Below are positions 2,115 through 24,022 of a stretch of 24,374 nt of DNA, piece by piece; position 1 is the stretch's first letter; the number at the start of each line of letters is the position of its first letter. A program made the position numbers and the translations under genes. Source of the DNA: Chiloscyllium plagiosum (lineage: Eukaryota); contig NC_057752.1 in NCBI RefSeq assembly GCF_004010195.1, positions 11,441,160-11,465,533 of the forward strand, read 5' to 3'. The notes under the pieces were generated by a model that was not told the origin of the DNA, made no database searches, and was given only the letters and a program-made list of their open reading frames with translations.

Positions 2115-2402
2115 ATAAACCCGTGATAATGGCAGGCCCGATCTGCACCATATCTGAGCATTGGATAAATTGCACTTGCACCTCCAAAGCCAATCCACCA
2201 GCCAACATGACATGGGCAACCAATGGGAGAATGATCCGTGGGAACAGCTCAGTTGGAGAAGCCGACACATGGGACGAGAGGACTTCCAGTCTGCACCTCT
2301 CGCTGATGCATGATCATCCAAATCAAACTGGGGATGTGATCGCGTGTGTTGCAACCAATGAGCATGGCAATAGCACGAGCAAGTATCAGCTCCCCTCTGA
2401 TG
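2115..2402 (+). CDS. Exon encoding the membrane-proximal C2-type Ig domain of a Siglec/MAG-like receptor; upstream exons not found in this window
   Basis: Pyrimidine-rich acceptor ...ttttggtttag|AT and donor G|gtacat; 288 bp, phase 1-1 as expected for an Ig exon. Translation KPVIMAGPICTISEHWINCTCTSKANPPANMTW...DVIACVATNEHG has the C-x8-C-x-C...NP...W and C-x-A-x-N-x-x-G pattern of the membrane-proximal domains of MAG and CD33-related Siglecs. Confidence 0.88.
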
Positions 2403-2464
2403 GTACATGTTGAGTTTATCCATTTTTACTACTTCTATGTAAGTTGGTCCATCACTTGTGATAA

Positions 2465-2572
2465 ACCTGTCAAGAAGGCAGCTAACCACCACCCTCTCCA
2501 GGGCAAATAGGGATGGGCTATCAATGCTGGCCAGCCAGTGATGCCCAAATCCCACATATGAATAAAAAAAAC
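2465..2572 (+). mobile_element. LINE/SINE 3' tail fragment ending in aataaaaaaa
   Basis: caagaaggcagctaaccaccaccctctccagggcaaatagggatggg...atgaataaaaaaa; reverse-complement counterpart at ~8003-8150. Confidence 0.6.
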
Positions 2573-2974
2573 TATATATGAACTTTATCAGTGTCAGCAA
2601 ACACCAGCTTCATTCAGCAGGTGTAGACTGAATCCATAGCTTATTATGGACTACTGTCCATTACTTGAACAGCATTAAACAATTTATGTTTCTGTCTTCT
2701 GACATTTTCAAGGGCCATGTGCAATTAAATTGTTTGAACAGCAGTGGTGCTGGAAGATAAAACATTTGCTTTGAATACCTGATGTTATTTCACTGTATGC
2801 TACTTTGTGCAGTCTACCTCGATGGACGTGCTCACGTATCTGTAACCTGCTCAGACTGATGCCCAATCTATCTGGTCACGATCAAAACACCCACTCTGAA
2901 TAGCATTGTCTCAATCTTACGAACGTCTATTAGGCTCTATCGTGAAATTGGACCATGTGTCCTTTGGGCTCAGG

Positions 2975-3085
2975 AGGGTGCTTGTGGCACAATGGTAGTG
3001 TCCGTACCTCTGAGCCAGGAGGCCTGGGTTATAGTCCCACCAGAGGTGGATCACAGCAACCGTGGACAGGTTGATTGAAAAATAT
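2975..3085 (+). mobile_element. tRNA-derived SINE-like element
   Basis: A-box-like tggcacaatggt and B-box-like ggttatagtcc; shares ccaggaggcctgggtt...agtcccacc with 1590-1670. Confidence 0.5.
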
Positions 3086-3388
3086 TGATGCTGCTCAGAA
3101 GAAGGCCATGGTTGATCAAACAGTGCGTTGTCCTGGGGATCATGTTGCAATCCTTGATTTTCTCAGATGTGTTCAGTACATCAGAATGTGGAGATGACAT
3201 TTTGTTGTTTATCTATGTTTTTGCATCCCAGCATAACTCAGTAACAGAAGGAGAAACAGGTTATGACAGGTGAAGTCCCTAATCTATCTTTTGTATCATG
3301 GTGTCATCATGAAGCATAATTTGGTGCAGGATTGTTGATTCACAAAAATTCCTTCCTGTGTAACATTGTTCATTTCTACATATTTTAG

Positions 3389-3482
3389 GTGGGAAGTCTG
3401 TGACAATTATCCTCATGGTTGGAGGAATAACAGTGGGACTCGGTGTTTTCATTGCGATTGCAGCCATCATGAAGTTACGGAT
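3389..3482 (+). CDS. Transmembrane exon of the Siglec-like receptor
   Basis: Acceptor tattttag|GT and donor AT|gtaagt; phase 1 in, phase 2 out. Encodes (G)GKSVTIILMVGGITVGLGVFIAIAAIMKLR, a hydrophobic helix followed by basic stop-transfer residues. Confidence 0.88.
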
Positions 3483-4063
3483 GTAAGTGCTCAACAGAAT
3501 AAGATCTCACTCTCCACCCAAACGTGTGAATAATGTGCTGAGATTATCATCCACAATGAACATTTGGATGAGTTAATGCAGGATGTCTGTGGGACACCAG
3601 TTCCCTGGCCAACTATTTTTATCTACAACATAGAGATGGTGGTGTGTGGTTCAATCAGTTGTCGGTGCATTATAGTTTGCATTTGCATTGTTATCTCTTG
3701 TTTGCATCTGCTCAATGAGCAAATCATCTCTTGCCATTACTGAGTTCTCTCACAGAAGGTTTTATTTTGTCATGTGATGTACATAGCTGGTCTTTAGTGC
3801 TTAAAGGAAGTGCACGGTGACAGAGAATTTGTGTTCTTTACCCTCCTTGTCGTTAGGTCACAGTACAAGCATGAGCAGCAAAGCATTGCAATTCGTAACA
3901 CGATGTGAAAATGATTGAAACAGTTGCAGAATGAAGTACACTGTATGAGAATGAGTACATGACTGCACTAAAGGAAGTCACAGCAGCAGAGCTTACTCTC
4001 GTGATATTCCTCTCTTGTGTGTGTAGGAAGTCATGGACACTTGCAGTGTCTCTGGCCCCCTAT

Positions 4064-4366
4064 ATTAGATTAGATTCCCTGCAGTGTGGAAGCAGACCCT
4101 TTGGCCCAACTAGTCCACACTCCCTCCAAAGAGTAACCCACCCAGACCCATTCCCCCTGACTAACTCTACAGTCAATTTAGCATGATCAATTCACCTAAC
4201 CTGCACATCTTTGGACTGTGGGAGGAAACCGGAGCACCCGGAGGAAACCCACGCAGACACAGGGAGAACGTGCAAACTCCACACAGACCGTCGCCTGAGG
4301 CTGGAATCGAACCCAGGTCCCTGGCGCTGTGAGGCAGCAGTGCTAACCACTGAGCCACCGTGCCGC
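4064..4366 (-). mobile_element. HE1/V-SINE-type SINE inserted in CR1 ORF1
   Basis: Minus strand begins gcggcacggtggctcagtggttagcactgctgcctcacagc (A box), then gggttcgattcc (B box), V-domain-like gggtttcctccgggtgctccggtttcctccc and a (tctaa)n tail. Confidence 0.88.
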
Positions 4367-5314
4367 TCCTATGCGAAGGACGTAAGGATGTACAGCTCCT
4401 GACTGGTCACGTTTCGGAGCTGGAGCTGCAGCTGGATTCACTGAGGGGCATATGCGATGCTGAGGTTGTCATGGACAGCACATTCCATGAGCTGGTCACA
4501 CCGTAGGTAAAAACTGAACAGGCAGAAAGGGTGACCGCTGGGCAGAGTAGAGGAAGGAGTTCCCGTGTGCACCCCCTATCTAACAGAGAAACAAATTTGG
4601 ATACTGTTTAGGAGAGATGACTTTGTAGGGGTTAGTCACAGGATCAAGGCCTATGGGACCGTGGGTGACTCTGCAGGACAGGAGAGGAGGAAGCAGAATG
4701 GTGGGGCTAGAGTGACAGGGGATTCATTAGTAAGGCAAAGGAATTGGTGGTACAACAGCTGCCAAAGAGGCTTCAGGATGGTATGTTACCTCCCTGATGG
4801 ACAGGGTCAAAGTTATCTCGGAGTAGCTAAAGGGCAATCTGCAAGAGGAGAGTGAAGAACCAGTGGTCATGATACGTGTCTGTACCAATGACACAAGTTT
4901 AAAAAATAGATGAGTTCCTATAAGTTGAGTATAAGGAGTTAGGTCATTGATTAAAAAGTAGAACCCCAAAAGGTAGTAATATCGAGATCAGTGCCACATG
5001 CTAGTGAGAGTAAACGTAGCAGGATATAACAGGTGTCTGTTGAAATACTGTCAGTGGAGGGATTCAGATTCCTGGGATTTTGGGAGCAGTTCTGGGGAAG
5101 GTGAGACTGGATGAAGATGTATCCAGTCAGGACTGGGATGAATGTAGGTGGTGGGCTCTTTTCTAATGCTGTTAGGTAAAGTTTAACCTGGAACGGCAGG
5201 GAGCGAGGAACCTCAGGAGTGGCAGGGAGACAGAGAAGGGGAGAACAAGGATAGGGACAAAAGTCAGAAAAGTAAGAAGCAAAAGTGCAAGGCAGAAGAA
5301 AAGAAGGGTGCTGA

Positions 5315-5635
5315 ACAGCACAGTGGCTCAGTGGTTAGTATTGCTGTCTCACAGCACCAGGGACCTGGGTTCAATTCCAGTTTCGGGCAACTGTCTGTGT
5401 GGAGATTGCACATTCTTCCCTGTGCCTGCATGGGTTTCCTCCCACAATCCAAAGATGTGCAGGTTAGGGTGGATTGGCCATGCTAACTTGCCCTGTAGTG
5501 TTCAGGGATGTGTAGGCTAGGTGGGTTAGCCATGGGAAAGGCAAGGTGATAGTGTAGGCGGGTGGGCTGCACTTCAGAGGGGTGATGTGGATTGATGGGC
5601 CGAATAGCCTGTATCCACACTGTGGGGATTCTATG
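5315..5635 (+). mobile_element. HE1/V-SINE-type SINE
   Basis: cagcacagtggctcagtggttag...gggttcaattcc...ccaaagatgtgcaggttagg...ccacactgtggggattctatg. Confidence 0.85.
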
Positions 5636-7444
5636 GCTAGCAAAGGTACAAGTGTAAAGGCAATGTGTCAAACATGAACAATAGACTACATAAATCTCCA
5701 AGGCAAACAAATACACATGGCAACGATCATTTTGGAATTGCAGAGACCTGGCTGCACAATGGCCAAAGGATGGGAACGGAAGTTCCAAGCGAATGTATCA
5801 TTTAGGAAGGGCAGACAAATCAGAAAAGGAGCTGGGGTGGCTCTGTTAATAAAAAGGTGAATTGTAACTAAAGATACTGGCTCTGAAAATTATCATGCAG
5901 ATTTTAACTGGGTGAAGGTAAGAAACACCAAAGGGCAGACAGTTTTGGTTTTCTATCAGCCTCCAAACAGCAGTCAGGATGTCAGGGAAGACAGTCAACG
6001 GAAGATTAAAGATGCATGCACTTAGAATACAACTTTAATCATGGGTGACTTCAATTGACAGAGATTGGATACACCAAAGCAGTAATAATACTGTGGAAGA
6101 GGATTTATTACGGTGTACATGCATGAATCTTTAGACCAATATGTTGTGGAACCAACTGGAGAGCAGGCTATCCTAGACTTGGTCGTGGGCGATGAGAAAG
6201 GGTAAATGAACAATCTTCCTGTATAGGATCTTGGGGAAGAGTGACCATAATGTGATAAAAGTGTTCATTAAGCTGGAGGGTGAAGAAGGTGAATCTGAAA
6301 CGAAGGTCCTGAATCTAAATAAAGGTTGTGATGAATGTTTGAGGCATGAGTTTTTATTGATGGATTGGGGAACCTTACTAAATGGGCCCAGCAATAGATA
6401 AGTAATGGGTAATATTTAAGGAAGGTATGTATGAATTGCAATAATTATTCATTCCTGTCCAGCGCAAGGAAAGGGGACCCAACTATAGTTTACAAAATAA
6501 ATTAGTTCAAGGAAGGAGACAAATATAATTGCCAAAATAATAAATCAGCAAGCCTGAGGACTGGGAACAATTTTGAATTCATTAAAAGAGGACAAAAAGA
6601 TTGTTTAAGAGTGGGGGAAGTAAAGTATGAGATTATGCTTTCAGGAAAAATAACAATGGATTTAAAAGCTTCTACAAATGTGTGAACAGATAACGATCAG
6701 CAAAGGCAATCAGAAAGGTGGGAAATTATAATGGAAACAAAGAAATGTCAGATAATTCAGACACAAATTTGGTTCTGACTTCACAAAAGAGAACACAAAT
6801 ATTTTCCCAGAAAGCTTAGAGAACCAAGGGACTAGTGAGAGGAAGGAATTGAAGAAGATCAGTATGAGTTAAAAGGAAAATGGCCTAAAGAAAAGATTGG
6901 GGTTAAAAGCTGATAAATCACTAGGCCTTAATAATCTCCTTGCAATGAATTTAAGGAGCCGACCCTGGAAATACATTGGTGGCCATCCTGCAGTATTCTA
7001 CTGATACTGGAGCAATTCCTACAGCTTGAGGTGTGATAAGCATAACCCCACTATTTAAAAAGGAGAGAGACAGAAAAAACACCTAGGTAATCACAGACCT
7101 GTTAGCCTAGAAGTGGGGGAAATGCAATTTATTGCTAAAAGACTTCAGCATCATTTGTGGGATTAAACAAAATGAGCATGACCTTATGAAAGGGATATCA
7201 TGCCGAACTAATCTACTGGAGATTTCTGAGGATTTATCCCCTAGAATAGATCAGGGAGAACCAGTGGATGTGGTGTATTTAGATTTGAGGAAGGGTTTTG
7301 ATGAGGTCTCATAACAGAGGCTGGTGGGTAGGATTACTGCACATGAAATGGGGGTGATAGGCTGTCACGGATTGAGAATTGGTTGTCAGACTCAGACCAG
7401 GAACTGGGAATAAGAACAAATGGATCTTTACCACATAGCAGGTA

Positions 7445-7620
7445 GTATTCCCACTTGAGACAGAGCGCTAATGGCAGTTTCAGCTGAGGGTCACCACACC
7501 TCAGGTCAAAAAGGTGAGCACCTTCATGGGGACTTCAGCCGTGGGGTCAGGAGTTAGACCCATGCTATTGGTTCCCTTCCACATCACAAACTAGCTGTCC
7601 AGGCAACTGAACTGACCAAC
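7445..7620 (-). mobile_element. Decayed tRNA-derived SINE
   Basis: Minus strand starts gttggtcagttcagttgcctgg (A-box-like head) and contains the hairpin cctgaggtgtggtgaccctcag. Confidence 0.45.
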
Positions 7621-7724
7621 CTCTCACTTAACAAGCCATTAAATATAGTTGGTATATTTTGTAAGCAAGAAAATCCTTTTCCTGACATTCTGCTGTTCTT
7701 GATCACACCCAGTACATTCTAGAA

Positions 7725-7820
7725 CACACAAAAACTGAAATTTGCTGGAGAAATTCTGGCAGCATCTGTGAATGGAGAAACAGTTAATATTTTGAGTCCA
7801 GTATTCCTTCCCAAAATGTT
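7725..7820 (-). mobile_element. Penelope-type terminal repeat fragment
   Basis: tgctggagaaa...ctggcagcatctgtg...gagaaacagttaa, the same repeat as 8705-8810. Confidence 0.45.
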
Positions 7821-7881
7821 TTATATTTGATTAAGGTTCAAGATGTCATTCTGAGAAATGCATGTATCTGTCTTTATTCAG

Positions 7882-7972
7882 GAAGAAGTCGGAAGAGACC
7901 TCCTTTGACGCCAGAATGAATGATGATGATTTCATAATTTATAGTTCTCTACGATTGTCAACAAACACTGAG
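7882..7972 (+). CDS. Cytoplasmic exon 1 with ITIM (IIYSSL)
   Basis: Acceptor tctttattcag|G and donor GAG|gtaaat; phase 2 in, which matches the TM exon, phase 0 out. Encodes (M)KKSEETSFDARMNDDDFIIYSSLRLSTNTE; ITIM at 7934-7951. Confidence 0.82.
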
Positions 7973-8002
7973 GTAAATGATACTGAGCTTCCTTTTCTTT
8001 TG

Positions 8003-8150
8003 CAGACTGGGTCAATATTTATTGCCCACCCGTAATTACCCCTGAGGAGGTAGTGGTGAGCTGCCTTCTTGAACTGCTACAGTCCTTTTGGGCATGTGCA
8101 CAACCAGATATGGTGATGGGAATTGCAGGGCTTAATTCAGGAACAATTAA
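8003..8150 (-). mobile_element. LINE 3' tail fragment
   Basis: tttattgccca...ggtagtggtgagctgccttcttgaac is the reverse complement of the family at 2465-2572. Confidence 0.55.
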
Positions 8151-8460
8151 CTTGGGGGTAGACGATGGCTAAGAATGGAAGATTTTCTTTTTGTATTAAG
8201 ACAAAGCAATTGCATCTTAATATGTTCGAATCACACTGGCCAAATGTGATCCCATATTGGTGCATTGCCTGTTTGTGTCAATCTACAATGAAAAGTTGAG
8301 TTCAGGCCTCAGTGCCCTGTAGTGGTCATCTCCCAGACAAGGGACATAAGGACATTTATAGGGATAACAGTGTGTTCTGGTCCGCAGAGCACACTATCAC
8401 CACCTTCAGGTCACGTTAAAATTAGCTCCATATCTGAACTCAACTCCTTTAACTTTACAG

Positions 8461-8541
8461 AGTGACTCTCATGCACTTGGCCAGCAATTGACGGAAACTA
8501 CTCAGAATAAGCCCATTGTGTATGCAGCGATCAGACTCTGA
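8461..8541 (+). CDS. Terminal coding exon with distal ITIM-like motif (IVYAAI) and stop codon
   Basis: Acceptor ctcctttaactttacag|, phase 0. Encodes SDSHALGQQLTETTQNKPIVYAAIRL, TGA at 8539-8541; motif at 8515-8532. Confidence 0.82.
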   Translation, partial: SDSHALGQQLTETTQNKPIVYAAIRL

Positions 8542-8810: not shown

Positions 8811-9265
8811 TTATTTTATTCCGCATTTCCAGCCTGGTCAGAGTCGGATGTTTGTTGGAGTTCAGTATAAACTCATTTTTGCCAAATCACGTTGAACATT
8901 TTTGTTCCTATTCAGTGAAAAAGAACTTTTTGCTTAAAGAAATCTTATCGTCAAAGCATCATTGTCTGTTAACCTGCTGAAATACATGACTATAGTCCAT
9001 GAACATCCAAACCTACAGCAAAGATTGCAAAGAAAAAACTGGCACAATTTCTACGGTTGTGATATTTTGATTGTTGCTGTCTATTTTAAATCCATTAAAC
9101 CGCAGAGCAAAATGGGAAGCAATGTATGAACCAGACATTCTGGATCAACAGAAAGCAGCAGTTATTCCATTGTACTCCACAGCAGAGTACTCTGACCCTC
9201 TCTGGCAGAGTTCGTTACAAACAAACACTACTTACTGTCCAATGCAGAAAGGTGCATTATGTTTG

Positions 9266-9626: not shown

Positions 9627-9979
9627 TAGAACTTTCCACATGGAATCACAGAATCGTAGCATTGTTACATTGCAGAAGGAGACAATTCAGTGCATTGTGT
9701 TTACGTGGGATATCAAACGAACATTACGGTTTTTGTGCCATTCCACTGTTTTAATCCTGTACCTTTCACAATTTGTGTTCAATGCTGTTGTGAATGGTTC
9801 AGTTCACTCTGCATCCACTATTGCCGCAGAGCATCCCAGATGCAAGCCATTCTTTGATTGTACAAATAAAAATTGATTTCCTCTCTCATCAGATTTGCTA
9901 CTTTTAAAACTCATTATAAATCTGAGCCCTCTTGCTCTCAATCCTTGTTTAAGAGGGGGAATAGTTTCTCCTTATTGGA

Positions 9980-10344: not shown

Positions 10345-11693
10345 GCAAGTAGTCTACCTGGGTTGACATTCTCAAGGAGGAGTTGTTAGCAATTCTGAAA
10401 AGTGTGAAAATAGATAAGTCCCCTGGGCCAGATGGGATTTATCCTAGGATTCTCTGGGAAGCCAGGGAGGAGATTGCAGAGCCTTTGGCTTTGATCTTTA
10501 TGTCATAATTGTCTACAGGAATAGTGCCAGAAGACTGGAGGATGTTGTCCCCTTGTTCAAGATGGGGAGTAGAGACAACCCTGGTAATTATAGACCAGTG
10601 AGTCTTACTTTGTGTGTGGGTAAAGTGTTGGAAAAGATTATAAGAGATAGGATTTATAATCATCTAGAGAGGAATAATTTAATAAGGGATAGCCAACACG
10701 GTTTTGTGAAGGGTAGGTTGTGCCTCACAAACCTTATTGAGCTCTTTGAGATGCTGACCAAACAGGTGGAAGAGGGTAAAGTGGTTGATGTGGTGTACAT
10801 GGATTTCAGTAAGGCGTTTGATCAGGTTCCCCACGGTAGGCTATTGCACAAAATACGGAGGCATCGGATTGAGGGTGATTTAGCAGTTTGGATCAGAAAT
10901 TGGCTAGCTGAAAGAAGACAGAGGATGGTGATTGATGGGAACTGTTCATCCTGGAGTTCAGTTACAAGTGGTGTACTGCAATGATCTGTTTTGGGGCCAC
11001 TGCTGTTTGTCATTTTCACAAATGACCTGGATGAGGGCGCAGAAGGATGGATTAGTAAATTTGTTGATGACACTAAGGTCGGTGGAGTTGTGGATAGTGC
11101 TGAAGGATGTTGCAGGGGGACTTAGATAAGCTGCAGAGCTGGGCTGAGAGGTGGCAAATGGAGTTTGATGTGGAAAAGTGTGTGATGATTCACTTTGGAA
11201 GGAGCAACAGGAATAAAGAGTACTGGGCTAATAGTAAGGTTCTTGGTAGTGTGGATGAGCAGAGAGATCTCGGCGTCCATGTACACAGATCCCTGAAACT
11301 TGAGGCTGTTTTTGTTAGAGAGAAGAAGGTTGAGAGATGACTTCATAGAGACGTATAAGATAATCAGAGGATTAGATAGGGGGGACAGTAAGAGCCTTTT
11401 TCCTCAAATGGTAATGGCTAGCATGAGGGGACATAGCTTTAAATTGAGGGGTGATAGATACAGGACAGATGTCAGAGGTAGTTTCTTTACTCAGAGAGTA
11501 GTCGGGGCGTCGAATGTGCTGCCTGCAACAGCAGTAGTCTCACCAACTTTAAGGGCATTTAAAAGGTAATTGGATAAACATATGGATGAAAATGGAATAG
11601 TGTAGGATAGATGGGCTGCAGATTGGTTCCACAGGTCGGCGCAACATCGAGGGTCAAAGGGCCTGTACTGTGCTGTAATGTTCTATGTTCTAT
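10345..11693 (+). mobile_element. 5'-truncated CR1 LINE (RT domain to 3' tail) with an internal deletion
   Basis: ORF 10553-10984: PGNYRPVSLT, SQHGFVKGR, VDVVYMDFSKAFDQVPH, SGVLQ; then KFVDDTK. The segment between HRSLK and LRLF (~11298) is missing. Tail (ttctatg)n. Confidence 0.93.
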
Positions 11694-13539: not shown

Positions 13540-13881
13540 CATAGAATCATACAATCCCTACAGTGTGAAAACAGGCCATTTGGCCCAACGCAGCCACACT
13601 AACCCTCCGAAGAGTAACCCACCCAGACCCATTCCCCTACGCTATTATTCTACATTTCCCCTGACTAATGCACCTAACCTACGCATCCCTGGGTACTATG
13701 GGTAACATAGCATGGCCAATTCACCTAACCTGCACATCTTTGGATTGTGGGAGGAAACTGGAGCACCCTGAGGAAACCCACGCAGAGACGAGGAGAATGT
13801 GCAAACTCCACACAGGCAGTTGCCTGAGGCTGGAATCGAACCCGGGTACCAGGCACTGTGAGGCAGCAGTGCTAACCACTT
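13540..13881 (-). mobile_element. HE1/V-SINE-type SINE
   Basis: Same body as 4064-4366 (...gaggaaacccacgcag...gcagcagtgctaaccact). Confidence 0.88.
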
Positions 13882-14714: not shown

Positions 14715-15775
14715 GTCAGGGTCAGGGCCAGGGTAAGGGTCAGGGTTAGGGTTATGGTTAAGGTCAGGGTTAGGGTCAGGGTCAGGATCGGGGTTACGGT
14801 TATGATTAAGATCAGGGTTAGGGTCAGGGTTAGGGTCAGGGTTAAGATCATAGTGAGCATCAGGGTTAGGGTCAGGGTCAGGATCAGGGTTAGGGTCATG
14901 ATTAAGATCAGGGTTAGGTTTATGATTAAGATCAGGGTTAGGGCCAGGGTCAGGATCAGGGTTACGGTTATGATTAAGATCAGGGTCTGGGTCAGGGTCA
15001 AGGTTAGTGTCAGGATCAGGTTTAGGGAATTGGTTAAGATCAGGGTTAGGGTCAGGGTTAGGGTTATGATTAAGATCAGGATTAGGGTCAGGATTAGGGT
15101 TAGGGTTACAGTTATGATTAAGATCAGGGTTAGGGCCAGGGTCAGGATCAGGGTTAGGGTCATGATTAAGATCAGGGTTAGGGTCAGGGTTAGGTTTATG
15201 ATTAAGATCAGGGTTAGGGCCAGGGTCAGGATCAGGGTTACGGTTATGATTAAGATCAGGGTTAGGGTCAGGGTTAGGGTTATGATTAAGATCAGGATTA
15301 GGGTCAGGGTTAGGGTTAAGGTTACAGTTATGATTAAGATCAGGGTTAGGGTCAGTTTCAAGATTAGTGTCAGGATCAGGGTTAGGGTTATGATTAAGAT
15401 CAGGGTTAGGGTCAGGGTCAGGATCAGGGTTACGGTTATGAGTAAGATCAGGGTCAGGCTCAGGGTCAAGGTTAGTGTCAGGATCAGTGTTATGGTTAAG
15501 GTCAGGGCTAGGGTCAGGGTTAAGGTTAGGTTAGAGTTAGGGTTATGGTTAAGATCAGAGTTAGGGTCAGGTTTAGGGTCAGGGTTAGGGTTATGGGGGT
15601 CAGGGTTATGGTCAGGTTAGGGTTAGAGTCAGGGTTTGGACCAGGGTCAAGGTCAGGGTTATGGATAGGGTGAGGGTCAGGATTAGGGTTCAGGTTAGGT
15701 TCAGGGCCAGGTTTAGTGTTAGGGTCAGAGTGAGGGATAGGATTTGGGTCAGGGTTATGGGCAGGGTCTGGGTTA
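14715..15775 (+). repeat. Telomere-like hexamer array (TTAGGG/TCAGGG and variants) with higher-order units
   Basis: In-register hexamers TTAGGG, TCAGGG, CCAGGG, TCAGGA, TTACGG, TTATGA, TTAAGA; recurring block ATGATTAAGATCAGG. Confidence 0.92.
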
Positions 15776-16625
15776 TTTTTCTGGCACTTTGCTTCTGTGG
15801 CACTCTGTTTCTTATGCATGCTGTTTCCCTGACACTCTGCTTCTCTGGCACTCTGTTCCTCTGGTAGTATTTTTCTGTCCCGTTCTGTTTCTCGGCTGCT
15901 CTGTTCCACTGGCCCTGAGCTCCTCTGGCACCCTGGTTCTCTTGCATACTATTTCTCAGACACTGGGTTTATCTGGCACTCTAGAGGAGGAGACACTGTG
16001 TTTGTGTCGCTATGACTTTCCTTTTACTATGTACTATCACTGTTTCTCCGACAGTCTGTTTCTCTCATTCTCCATTTCTCTCTCTCTCTGTTTCTGTCGC
16101 AGGCTGTGTCTCTGGCACTCTGTTTATCTCGCAAACTGTTTCCCTTGCCGTATGTTTCTCTCACACTCTGTTTTTCTGCAACTCTGTTTCTCTCACAGTG
16201 TGTTTCCCTTGCACGATGTATCTAAGGGAATCTATTACTCACGTACACTGTTTTTCTACACTCTGTTTCTCTCGCACGCTGTTTCACAGGCACTTTGTTT
16301 CACTGGCCCTTTTTTGTCTGGCACTCTGTTCCTCTGGCGCTCCCTCTTTCTGTTGCAGGTTGTTTCTCAGGCACTGTTTCTGTCCCACAAGCTGGTTCTC
16401 AGGCACTCTGTGTTTCTTTGGCAAACTGTTTCATTCACACTCTGTCTATCTTGCACTGGATTACTCCCACTGGATTTCCCTCTCACAGTGTTTCTCTGGC
16501 ACTCTGTTTCTCTTGCTCTCTTTTTTGTGTGTAACTTATTTCTCTGGCACTCTCTTTTTCAGGCACTCTGTTTCTCTCAATATGTTCCTCTGATAATCTG
16601 CTAATCTCGCACAATGTCTCTCAGT
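15776..16625 (+). repeat. Degenerate pyrimidine-rich satellite
   Basis: Many imperfect copies of (ct)ctggcactctgtttc(tc). Confidence 0.8.
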
Positions 16626-17279: not shown

Positions 17280-18213
17280 NNNNNNNNNNNNNNNNNNNNN
17301 NNNNNNNNNNNNNNNNNNNNNNNNNNNNNNNNNNNNNNNNNNNNNNNNNNNNNNNNNNNNNNNNNNNNNNNNNNNNNNNNNNNNNNNNNNNNNNNNNNNN
17401 NNNNNNNNNNNNNNNNNNNNNNNNNNNNNNNNNNNNNNNNNNNNNNNNNNNNNNNNNNNNNNNNNNNNNNNNNNNNNNNNNNNNNNNNNNNNNNNNNNNN
17501 NNNNNNNNNNNNNNNNNNNNNNNNNNNNNNNNNNNNNNNNNNNNNNNNNNNNNNNNNNNNNNNNNNNNNNNNNNNNNNNNNNNNNNNNNNNNNNNNNNNN
17601 NNNNNNNNNNNNNNNNNNNNNNNNNNNNNNNNNNNNNNNNNNNNNNNNNNNNNNNNNNNNNNNNNNNNNNNNNNNNNNNNNNNNNNNNNNNNNNNNNNNN
17701 NNNNNNNNNNNNNNNNNNNNNNNNNNNNNNNNNNNNNNNNNNNNNNNNNNNNNNNNNNNNNNNNNNNNNNNNNNNNNNNNNNNNNNNNNNNNNNNNNNNN
17801 NNNNNNNNNNNNNNNNNNNNNNNNNNNNNNNNNNNNNNNNNNNNNNNNNNNNNNNNNNNNNNNNNNNNNNNNNNNNNNNNNNNNNNNNNNNNNNNNNNNN
17901 NNNNNNNNNNNNNNNNNNNNNNNNNNNNNNNNNNNNNNNNNNNNNNNNNNNNNNNNNNNNNNNNNNNNNNNNNNNNNNNNNNNNNNNNNNNNNNNNNNNN
18001 NNNNNNNNNNNNNNNNNNNNNNNNNNNNNNNNNNNNNNNNNNNNNNNNNNNNNNNNNNNNNNNNNNNNNNNNNNNNNNNNNNNNNNNNNNNNNNNNNNNN
18101 NNNNNNNNNNNNNNNNNNNNNNNNNNNNNNNNNNNNNNNNNNNNNNNNNNNNNNNNNNNNNNNNNNNNNNNNNNNNNNNNNNNNNNNNNNNNNNNNNNNN
18201 NNNNNNNNNNNNN
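17280..18213. other. Assembly gap (934 N)
   Basis: Run of N. Confidence 1.
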
Positions 18214-18679: not shown

Positions 18680-18775
18680 TTCAGGTTAGAGTTAGGGTTA
18701 GGTTTAGGGTTAGGGTTCGGATTATTGCTATGTTTAGGGTTAGTGTTAGGGTTATTGCTAGAGTCAGGGTCAGGT
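18680..18775 (+). repeat. Short degenerate telomere-like tract
   Basis: gttagggttaggtttagggttagggttcgg...gtcagggtcagg. Confidence 0.75.
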
Positions 18776-20844: not shown

Positions 20845-21834
20845 TGAAGACCTTTGACCCGTCAAGAGGGGCCTCTTCATTCGAGATTGGTCAAAAGAAT
20901 CAACGAATACGGTCTGTTCAAAAAGCATGGGTCATTAGTTTATTGAATTAAGATACCTTGGCGCAATTCTATCCAGCAGCAGAGAGGTTAAAGCTTCTGT
21001 GTTCTGTGGTGAAGTTGCGCAATTACATTTGAAAATTACACATTATTTATATGTTTTTTAAGAGATAGCACAGCCTTAACTACAAGAAAGACCAATCACG
21101 TATAATAAGGTGACATGATTTGCAGTGAGTTAATCCAATGATATTTCCTGGGAAAGGGTTCTTAATTTCAAGAAAAGTCCAATCAACTGTAATATGGTGA
21201 CATGATTGACAACAGGCTAATCCAATGGTATTCCTTGGAAAAGAATGATTAGATTAGATTACCTACAGTGTGGAAACAGGCCCTTCAGCCCAACAAGTCC
21301 ACACCGACCCTCCGAAGAGAAACCCACCCACCCCTATATTTACCCCTGACTAATCCACCTAACACTACGAGCAATTTAGCATGGCCAATTCACCTAACCT
21401 GCACATCTTTGGACTGTGGGAGGAAACCCGAGCACCCGGAGGAAACCCACGCAGACACGGGGAGAATGTGCAAACTCCACACAGACAGTCGCCTGAGGCA
21501 GGAATTGAACCCGGGTCTCTGGCACTGTGAGGCAGCAGTGCTAACCACTGAGCCCCATATCTTATTTATGTATTTACATAAATTGTCATGCCATTTATCA
21601 GTTCTAGGTTAGATGGAATGGTCAATTAATGTGGTCAATTTTATGAAAACTCTATTGTTCTCTTATCTTTGAATTTCAGCTTAATTCTGCAAATCAGCAG
21701 TACAGGTTCACAGGGTTCAATCACTATTCTCAGCCATTTTATAGTATTCCTTTAAATTGAAAAACCATTTTGTGGTTAATAAAAATCCACATATACTTGT
21801 TGTCTAAATTCAAATTTTAGATCCTCAGTCTTCA
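20845..21834 (-). mobile_element. Probable LTR of a different family, with a SINE insertion
   Basis: Inverted termini TGAAGAC...GTCTTCA. Minus-strand order: duplicated CCAAT-containing block (21083-21243), TATAAA (21051-21046), AATAAA (20944-20939). No TSD seen. Confidence 0.5.
21247..21555 (-). mobile_element. HE1/V-SINE-type SINE
   Basis: (gatta)n tail side at 21247; body closely matches 4064-4366. Confidence 0.88.
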
Positions 21835-21859: not shown

Positions 21860-22499
21860 AGATACCAGGAAGGATATTGTGAAACTTGAAAGGGTTCCAG
21901 GATTGGGGCGGCACGGTGGCTCAGTGGTTAGCACTGCTGCCTCACAGCGCTAGGGACCCAGGTTTGATTCCAGCCTCGGGCGACTGTCTGTGTGGAGTTT
22001 GTGCATTCTCCCTGTGTCTGCGTGGATTTCATCCGGGTGTTTCAGTTTCCTCCCACAATCCAAGATGTGCAGGTTAGGTGAATCGGCCATGCTCAATTGT
22101 CCACAGTGTTTAGGAATGTGTAGACTCAGGGTAAATGGGTTTGAGTGGGTTACTCTTCAGAGGGTTGATATGGACTTGTTGGGCCAAATGGCCTGTTTCC
22201 ACACTGACGCGAATCTATGCCGATTTCCAAGGATGTTGCCAGAGTTATCGGGAGAGGCTGAAGAGGCTGGGGCTCTTTCCCGCGGAGGCTAAGGGGTGAT
22301 CTTGCAGAAGTTTATAAAATCATGAGGGGCATGGATAGAGTGAATATCTAAAGTCTTTTCCCCAGGTTGGAGGAGTCCAAAGCCAGAGGGCATAAGATGA
22401 GAGGGGTAAGATTTAAAAGGGACCCAAGGGGCAACATTTTCACACAAGGTGGGGGGTGCTGCTTGTATGGAATGAGCTGCCAGAGGAAGTGGTGGAGAC
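21860..22499 (+). mobile_element. CR1 3' fragment interrupted by a SINE and cut by an LTR
   Basis: ggaaggatattgtgaaacttgaaaggg...EVYKIMRGMDRV...tggaatgagctgccagaggaagtggtggag (WNELPEEVVE). Confidence 0.72.
21905..22217 (+). mobile_element. HE1/V-SINE-type SINE
   Basis: ggggcggcacggtggctcagtggttagcactgctgcctcacagc...ggcctgtttccacactg. Confidence 0.88.
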
Positions 22500-23387: not shown

Positions 23388-23690
23388 TCATTCAAGTCTC
23401 GACAATGTGTCAGCAATCATGTTTTCTCATCCTGCCACATGCACAACTTTCAAACTGAATGGCTGTAACAAGCTCCATCTAAACAGGCTGGCATTTTTGC
23501 CCTTAAATTTCTCTACAAACGTCAGTGGGTTATGGTCAGTGTATATGATTGTCTCAGATATATTACTGGTAACATAAACATTGAAATGTTGTAACACCAA
23601 CACAAAGCTCAAAATGTCCTTCTCAACTGGCAAATATTTCTGCTGATGAACATTCAACTTCCGGGAGAATAACCCGATAGGTCTTCTTTT
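23388..23690 (-). pseudogene. Gypsy pol RNase H C-terminal remnant
   Basis: RPIGLFSRKLNVHQQKYLPVEKD...YTDHNPLTF...RWSLLQPF...HVAG*ENMIADTLSRLE*; in-frame TGA at 23427-23429. Confidence 0.85.
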
Positions 23691-23932
23691 TGTGCGAAGG
23701 ATTTGTAGCTCGGGTGCTCGTTGTTGTGGTTCTGTTCGCCGAGCTGGAAGTTTTTGTTGCAAACGTTTCGTCCCCTGGCTAGGCGACATCATCAGTGCTG
23801 GGTACCCAATATACCAACCACGACAGCGGACAGCTGAAACTGACAACCGGAAACGGCAGGGACAGACCACTATAAACACCAGAGGAAACATCAAAGAAGC
23901 GCTTCGCAGGAGGCTCCCAAGCACTGATGATG
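23691..23932. mobile_element. Penelope-like pseudo-LTR fragments in inverted arrangement
   Basis: The minus segment 23691-23800 carries a hammerhead. The plus segment ends in agcactgatgatg (23920-23932), the exact reverse complement of catcatcagtgct (23787-23799). Confidence 0.7.
23759..23798 (-). ncRNA. Minimal type I hammerhead ribozyme motif (Penelope-associated)
   Basis: Minus strand: GCA-CUGAUGA-U-GUCGCCU(AGCC)AGGGGAC-GAAAC-GUU^UGC. Core, helix I (GCA/UGC), helix II and a palindromic ACGU helix III are all present. Confidence 0.72.
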
Positions 23933-24022
23933 GTTAGAAGGCAGTTATGGGTCAACAACATTGCGGTTGTTACATGTCAGCCAGACCAGGGAAGGGCGAC
24001 AGATTTGGTTCCCTAAAGAGGA
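23933..24022 (-). mobile_element. Decayed shark SINE fragment (Deu/SacSINE1-like)
   Basis: ggcagttatgggtcaacaacattgc...gccagaccagggaaggg...ttccctaaag resembles the reverse complement of a common shark SINE body, recalled rather than searched. Confidence 0.4.

Follow-up and report, generated by a model that had tools for sequence, protein, structure and literature searches.

What does a shark receptor recognize when it is built like a sialic-acid-binding Siglec and ends in an inhibitory-type tail? This question is raised by a four-exon gene segment (positions 2115..8541) within a 24,374-nucleotide stretch of Chiloscyllium plagiosum DNA, hereafter the window (contig NC_057752.1, positions 11,441,160 to 11,465,533 of the forward strand), which an earlier note, made from the sequence alone, had described as part of an inhibitory Siglec relevant to sialic-acid self recognition. 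In the full-length RefSeq protein of this gene, XP_043537982, the essential arginine of the sialic-acid site is replaced by isoleucine. Because this gene and related shark genes have lost the arginine that Siglecs use to grip sialic acid, the ligand is probably not sialic acid, and the reading we favor, as judged from sequence, is that of a type I membrane, SHP-recruiting inhibitory receptor of Siglec descent which probably binds something other than sialic acid.

The window holds the C-terminal part of the gene. On all four exons an AG acceptor follows a pyrimidine-rich tract, GT donors close the first three, and the joined exons give an open reading of 183 residues without a stop before the TGA. 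The features of this segment, and two candidate polyadenylation signals recognized from sequence downstream of it, are as follows:

2115..2402, + strand: exon 1, 288 nt, phase 1-1, encoding the Ig domain next to the membrane (XP_043537982 residues 239-333), a homologue of MAG Ig5
2144..2179, + strand: C-x8-C-x-C motif (C248, C257, C259), the first two cysteines matching the extra MAG Ig5 disulfide C421-C430
3389..3482, + strand: exon 2 (transmembrane), 94 nt, phase 1-2
about 3406-3471, + strand: transmembrane helix, hydrophobic and without a charged residue, with a GxxxG motif, then a basic stop-transfer stretch
7882..7972, + strand: exon 3, first cytoplasmic exon, 91 nt, phase 2-0
7934..7951, + strand: IIYSSL (Y385), a strict-consensus immunoreceptor tyrosine-based inhibitory motif (ITIM), matching the family's membrane-proximal tyrosine motif
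8461..8541, + strand: exon 4, last coding exon, 81 nt, phase 0-stop, ending in the TGA stop
8515..8532, + strand: IVYAAI (Y416), ITIM-like, aligning with the first motif of the CD33-type pair
9094..9099, + strand: ATTAAA, candidate poly(A) signal
9865..9870, + strand: AATAAA, candidate poly(A) signal

Exon 1 also carries five N-glycosylation sequons, and the cytoplasmic tail spans 60 residues, with the IIYSSL and IVYAAI tyrosines 31 residues apart. Taken alone, these motifs are not beyond chance, ITIM-like hexamers occurring 76 times in 46,874 six-frame codons and C-x8-C-x-C five times. The gene model stands because the exon 1 translation matches a named protein of C. plagiosum at 100% identity, because all four exons map onto the C-terminus of that protein (XP_043537982-4, “Siglec 13 isoform X1”, 421 aa, P0005), and because the same segments, with both tyrosine motifs, recur in gene models of C. 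punctatum and Stegostoma (Ig domain identity 89/95 and 73/95, tail identity 54/56 and 38/56, respectively), the supporting records of all three species being computed gene models. The exons map also to XP_043537985 (“nectin-4-like isoform X2”, 321 aa, P0002), a form without the middle domain. RefSeq lists the gene already, with a name assigned automatically, and its model is not new. Re-reading of the sequence and the RefSeq model both agree with the exons, splice sites, phases, Ig domain, uncharged helix, tail of about 60 residues and two motifs 31 residues apart that the earlier note had described, and the C. plagiosum protein and its shark relatives bear out the cartilaginous-fish origin which it had proposed. 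A tblastn search with 18 proteins found no V-set or C-type exon and no second family gene in the window, in line with the statement that the V-set domain lies outside it.

The full-length protein comprises a signal peptide, a V-set domain, a C-type domain, the MAG-Ig5-like domain, the transmembrane helix and the tail, with both Pfam V-set and Ig_CD22 above cut-off. Among its PDB matches (E up to 1e-5), 11 of 12 were Siglecs, MAG being the best (5e-23), followed by Siglec-8, Siglec-5, CD33 and CD22. MAG was also the top PDB match for exon 1 alone, and a fold search ranked MAG and CD22 first, using an AlphaFold model that was weak (pLDDT 57, 7 sequences) and served solely for this search. In the V-set domain, C41 and C99 correspond to the Siglec B-/E-strand pair, the F strand (YQVI) is without an F-strand cysteine, and the MAG interdomain pair C37-C165 has its counterpart in C36 and C164, which predicts a disulfide from the alignment. 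The C-x8-C-x-C domain corresponds to MAG Ig5 and, in tetrapod Siglec-10/11-type proteins, to the domain nearest the membrane; the extra C-x8-C pair is common to MAG and other Siglecs and is therefore not diagnostic of MAG, whose cysteine pairs and extra Ig5 disulfide are described in PMC5150538. Both the Siglec/MAG-type architecture and the assignment of C-x8-C-x-C to the MAG/CD33-related membrane-proximal domain, as first proposed, are thereby upheld, through the PDB and fold matches, the retained Siglec cysteines, the MAG Ig5 match and the grouping with Siglec-10/11-type proteins.

These matches also raise the possibility of a shark MAG or myelin adhesion molecule, for which one could add that fish MAG carries an ITIM, according to PMC7226832. 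Like MAG (Siglec-4; PDB 5lf5), the protein has a V-set and a second domain joined by an interdomain cysteine pair, as well as the extra membrane-proximal C-x8-C disulfide motif. However, it shares only about 23% identity with MAG, has three Ig domains against five and a different tail, and is without R118, W22 and the WxxW motif, the last of which fish and human MAG are said to have in common (PMC5150538). With the V and C domains taken together in the whale-shark orthologue, Siglec-5 moreover scores above MAG, and the gene belongs to a multigene family, which together make a shark MAG highly improbable.

Several gene models of this protein deserve separate mention. Nectin-4-like, the name given to isoform X2, was rejected as an identity, with nectins scoring far below Siglecs. 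Because the middle Ig domain is skipped in isoform X2, C36 would lose its partner there, and C21 and C85 are likewise unpaired by homology, making disulfide-linked dimers possible. The Rhincodon and Stegostoma orthologue (P0007/P0008 and P0004) looks split, with a V plus C model that ends without a transmembrane helix, and in Stegostoma a separate C-terminal model lies on a contig of the same size as that of the V plus C model. This is probably a split annotation, and possibly a secreted form.

The essential arginine of the Siglec sialic-acid site (MAG R118) is Ile117 in XP_043537982. A gap-free alignment from the E-strand cysteine through the F strand places Ile117 on the Siglec-5 arginine, a family profile alignment places it on MAG R118, and the A-strand aromatic residue (MAG W22) is Cys21. 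As a control, the same method applied to the same-species paralogue P0019 aligned an arginine on R118 and a tryptophan on W22. The V-set net charge is -4 in XP_043537982 and +10 in P0019, and the F-G region of the former is without arginine or lysine. Loss of this arginine abolishes sialic-acid binding both in the MAG mutant R118A (PMC5150538) and in human Siglec-XII (PMC6288428). The earlier suggestion of sialic-acid self recognition is thus unsupported, because the full-length V-set has isoleucine at the essential arginine and cysteine at the A-strand aromatic; the arginine which the earlier note had proposed to look for was sought in the RefSeq protein, and Ile117 was found in its place. 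In signaling the predicted protein would resemble an inhibitory Siglec, but with sialic-acid recognition as the criterion it would fall outside the Siglecs, and “Siglec-like” should be its proper name.

Could the V-set still bind glycans in another way? Sialylated or sulfated glycans or glycolipids might be bound at a non-canonical, arginine-independent site, as proposed for Siglec-6, with signaling through the ITIMs. Ganglioside binding by Siglec-6, MAG and Siglec-11 is described as partly arginine-independent in PMC12953582, and nine basic residues are left in the V-set, five of which (R52, K53, K58, K59 and K65) lie around the C strand and C-C' loop. Yet binding of free glycans in the same study still depends on the canonical arginine, and here the A-strand aromatic is lost as well, the F-G region is acidic and the V-set carries its net negative charge. 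We therefore consider non-canonical glycan binding unlikely.

The replacement is not peculiar to C. plagiosum. Searches returned shark and ray proteins named MAG-like, Schwann-cell-myelin-protein-like or Siglec-8/11/13/14, and 45 V-set domains were compared, one per gene, chosen from 169 stored proteins, with isoforms left out of all trees. This sample was incomplete, with no chimaera protein identified; the resulting trees were unrooted, covered about 120 columns and included 4 tetrapod rows, and no MAG, Siglec-1 or Siglec-15 was recognized among the 169 proteins. Isoleucine occupies the arginine site in 10 of the 45 domains, from eight shark species (C. plagiosum, C. punctatum, Rhincodon, Stegostoma, Heterodontus with three genes, Heptranchias, Scyliorhinus canicula and S. 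torazame). The isoleucine rows formed one clade (support 100/97), which reappeared (99/97) after removal of the long-branched P0145 and of five columns around the site. In a tree of the membrane-proximal domain (32 rows), the seven members of this clade that were included grouped together with one V-less model (96/85). Arginine is found in 8 of the other 11 family rows, including 4/4 ray rows, and alanine, threonine or lysine in the remaining 3; the arginine-bearing paralogues share about 31-37% identity with this gene. As read from these sequences, the arginine-to-isoleucine change predates the split between sevengill and galeomorph sharks, because both groups carry the isoleucine. That split lies over 200 million years in the past, and the eight species belong to four orders. 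The automatic names “Siglec 13”, “MAG-like” and “nectin-4-like” are misleading for these genes.

Loss of the essential arginine has a parallel in primates, where human Siglec-XII and great-ape Siglec-5 keep the Siglec architecture and ITIMs with the arginine replaced (PMC6288428); in contrast to these recent, single-lineage losses, the shark isoleucine is common to 10 genes. The primate case suggests another reading, namely a ligand-less or degenerating member acting as tonic inhibitor, decoy or dimer partner of arginine-bearing paralogues, as argued for human Siglec-XII. Such a role would suit the fast turnover of the family, with its varied domain numbers and further arginine losses (alanine, threonine or lysine in 3/11 rows), as well as the truncated tail, the free cysteines and the GxxxG helix, the last two of which could support dimers. 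However, the V-set is conserved, with 87/118 residues identical to whale and zebra shark and the F strand unchanged across four carpet sharks, and the isoleucine clade is retained in eight species. We regard a ligand-less receptor as quite unlikely.

Across 24 tails compared, an ITIM and a distal EYxxI-type motif lie exactly 23 residues apart in 15 (nine family members, two longer shark Siglec-likes and four tetrapod Siglec-10/11-type proteins) and 24 apart in one more. In the C. plagiosum gene, IVYAAI aligns with the first motif of this pair and IIYSSL with a separate proximal motif, and with a profile of 13 family tails the distal EYxxI left no trace in any of the three frames behind the stop. 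The distal motif is missing also from the two carpet-shark orthologues and two Heterodontus clade members. Three carpet-shark species have IIYSSL and IVYAAI without any change. IIYSSL fits the strict ITIM consensus, [I/V/L/S]xYxx[L/V], as quoted in PMC7226832. An inhibitory-type tail, as expected from the first reading of the locus, is supported by this motif and the uncharged helix. A CD33-related-like tail is not, IVYAAI being the first of a pair whose distal EYxxI, 23 residues on, is absent. Judged by alignment, the family possesses the CD33-type tail module, which is ancient, and the two tyrosines of this gene are a different pair.

The relation to tetrapod CD33-related Siglecs was examined on the V-set tree, where a sister position of the isoleucine clade to the 4 tetrapod CD33-related rows was rejected (approximately unbiased test, p-AU 0.006). 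Grouping the whole shark and ray family with these rows gave a borderline p 0.054, and with four longer chondrichthyan Siglec-likes added it was not rejected (p 0.119). Direct CD33-related kinship therefore falls for the isoleucine clade as sister and may or may not hold for the wider family. In the free tree it is the longer chondrichthyan Siglec-likes, and not this family, that adjoin the tetrapod rows (94/92, unstarred). That longer group includes P0117 (Heptranchias), P0101 (Pristiophorus) and P0058 (Mobula), whose sequences make them the better candidates for shark CD33-type Siglecs; P0117 retains the arginine, the A-strand tryptophan and an LHYACI...TQYAEI tail, and lies on a contig of the same size as that of the Heptranchias family members, which suggests one cluster.

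CD33-related Siglecs (Siglec-5, -8, -10, -11) give an equal or better match over the V plus C domains, have the same type of membrane-proximal domain and share with the wider shark family the pair of ITIM and EYxxI at 23 residues. A canonical sialic-acid-binding inhibitory Siglec, the shark counterpart of the CD33-related group and the view of the earlier note, could appeal to this tail pair, shared by the family and tetrapod Siglecs, as well as to the architecture, the cysteines and the automatic RefSeq name. Against it, isoleucine stands at the essential arginine in this gene and every orthologue examined, the distal motif is missing, and the sister grouping with tetrapod CD33-related rows is rejected. 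On this sequence evidence a canonical Siglec appears largely refuted already, and we hold it to be very unlikely. Better candidates for true shark sialic-acid receptors are the arginine-bearing elasmobranch “MAG-like” or “Siglec-like” paralogues (e.g., XP_043539253, P0019), which belong to the same family and have the same domain types but, unlike this gene, keep the arginine, the distal tyrosine motif and, in sharks, mostly the A-strand tryptophan.

How would a receptor of Siglec descent with a different ligand work? ITIM receptors signal by clustering, Src-family phosphorylation and docking of SHP-1 or SHP-2 through their tandem SH2 domains, and thereby damp activation. By analogy with known Siglecs and other ITIM receptors, ligand binding would cluster the receptor, a Src-family kinase would phosphorylate Y385 and Y416, SHP-1 or SHP-2 would dock on the phosphorylated tail with its tandem SH2 domains, and nearby activating signals would be damped. 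The ligand would not be a sialoside and, most tentatively, given the remodeled binding face, might be a protein, either a marker of self or one from the surface of a pathogen. Several points weigh against this favored reading, besides the partly arginine-independent ganglioside binding mentioned above. The V-set is known from database gene models outside the window, the weak structure model gave no pocket geometry, and family sampling was thin and word-limited (13 matches in one search). IVYAAI ends in isoleucine and departs from the strict consensus by one conservative change. Nor do all clade members share the two-ITIM layout: Heterodontus P0164, which beyond the carpet sharks is closest to this gene, no longer has the proximal tyrosine, and there is none in its X2 model.

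The chromosomal setting offers an unverified lead. In C. punctatum, an older model (GCC19393, P0006) continues beyond this gene with GLI zinc fingers (residues 382-488); the fusion is probably a joining artefact, and it suggests a GLI gene next door, which by its diagnostic residues would be GLI1 rather than GLI2 or GLI3. Gli1 is reported as X-linked in five elasmobranchs (bioRxiv 2025.03.13.642935), and the smallest X among non-stingray species is given as 16.4 Mb (bioRxiv 2025.02.26.637739); the contig carrying this gene has 16,392,401 bases. The gene may thus be X-linked in carpet sharks. Neither a Siglec nor Gli1 was found in the supplements of two shark X-chromosome papers. In both C. plagiosum and Stegostoma, different contigs carry the arginine-bearing paralogues. 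Against a general X rule, the clade members of Heterodontus and Heptranchias lie on contigs of 44.1 and 15.7 Mb, respectively, outside the size range.

Other features of the window are mostly repeats. Degenerate GGTTAG/GGTCAG-type hexamer arrays, telomere-repeat-like but at an internal site, occupy 14715-15775 and 18684-18774, and a pyrimidine-rich 16-bp tandem repeat of about 50 copies fills 15776-16577. Retroelement fragments at 10448-10984 (+) and 23427-23933 (-) matched reverse transcriptase (Pfam RVT_1, 2.5e-18) and reverse transcriptase RNase H (8e-15). By eye, decayed sequence resembling a long interspersed nuclear element seems to fill intron 2, and several copies of a short interspersed repeat lie at about 13560-13880, 21260-21550 and 21910-22210. 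The latter resembles the shark tRNA-derived family of short interspersed nuclear elements. Positions 17280-18213 are an assembly gap of 934 N.

Our literature searches on Siglecs, at the level of listings and with subscription papers outside reach, found no paper describing shark Siglecs or this arginine-less clade. Siglec-like genes of fish or sharks may be treated in the reviews of Cao and Crocker and of Bornhoefft (2018). Siglecs receive a single mention in the whale-shark genome paper, and fish genomes are said to lack inhibitory CD33-related Siglecs in PMC7226832, which is written of teleosts. The 23-residue tyrosine pair already present in sharks and rays bears on this claim. Overall, we give about even chances to a fuller scenario in which sharks have an expanded family of inhibitory Siglec-type receptors with a CD33-type tail, of which one branch left sialic acid before the sevengill/galeomorph split and was kept and duplicated for another ligand, and in which this member may have moved to the X chromosome in carpet sharks. 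This gene and XP_043539253 form a matched same-species pair for direct comparison of ligands. If true, a conserved arginine-less shark clade would show early reuse of the Siglec scaffold for another ligand, an ancient and conserved ligand switch on the Siglec fold beside arginine-bearing paralogues.

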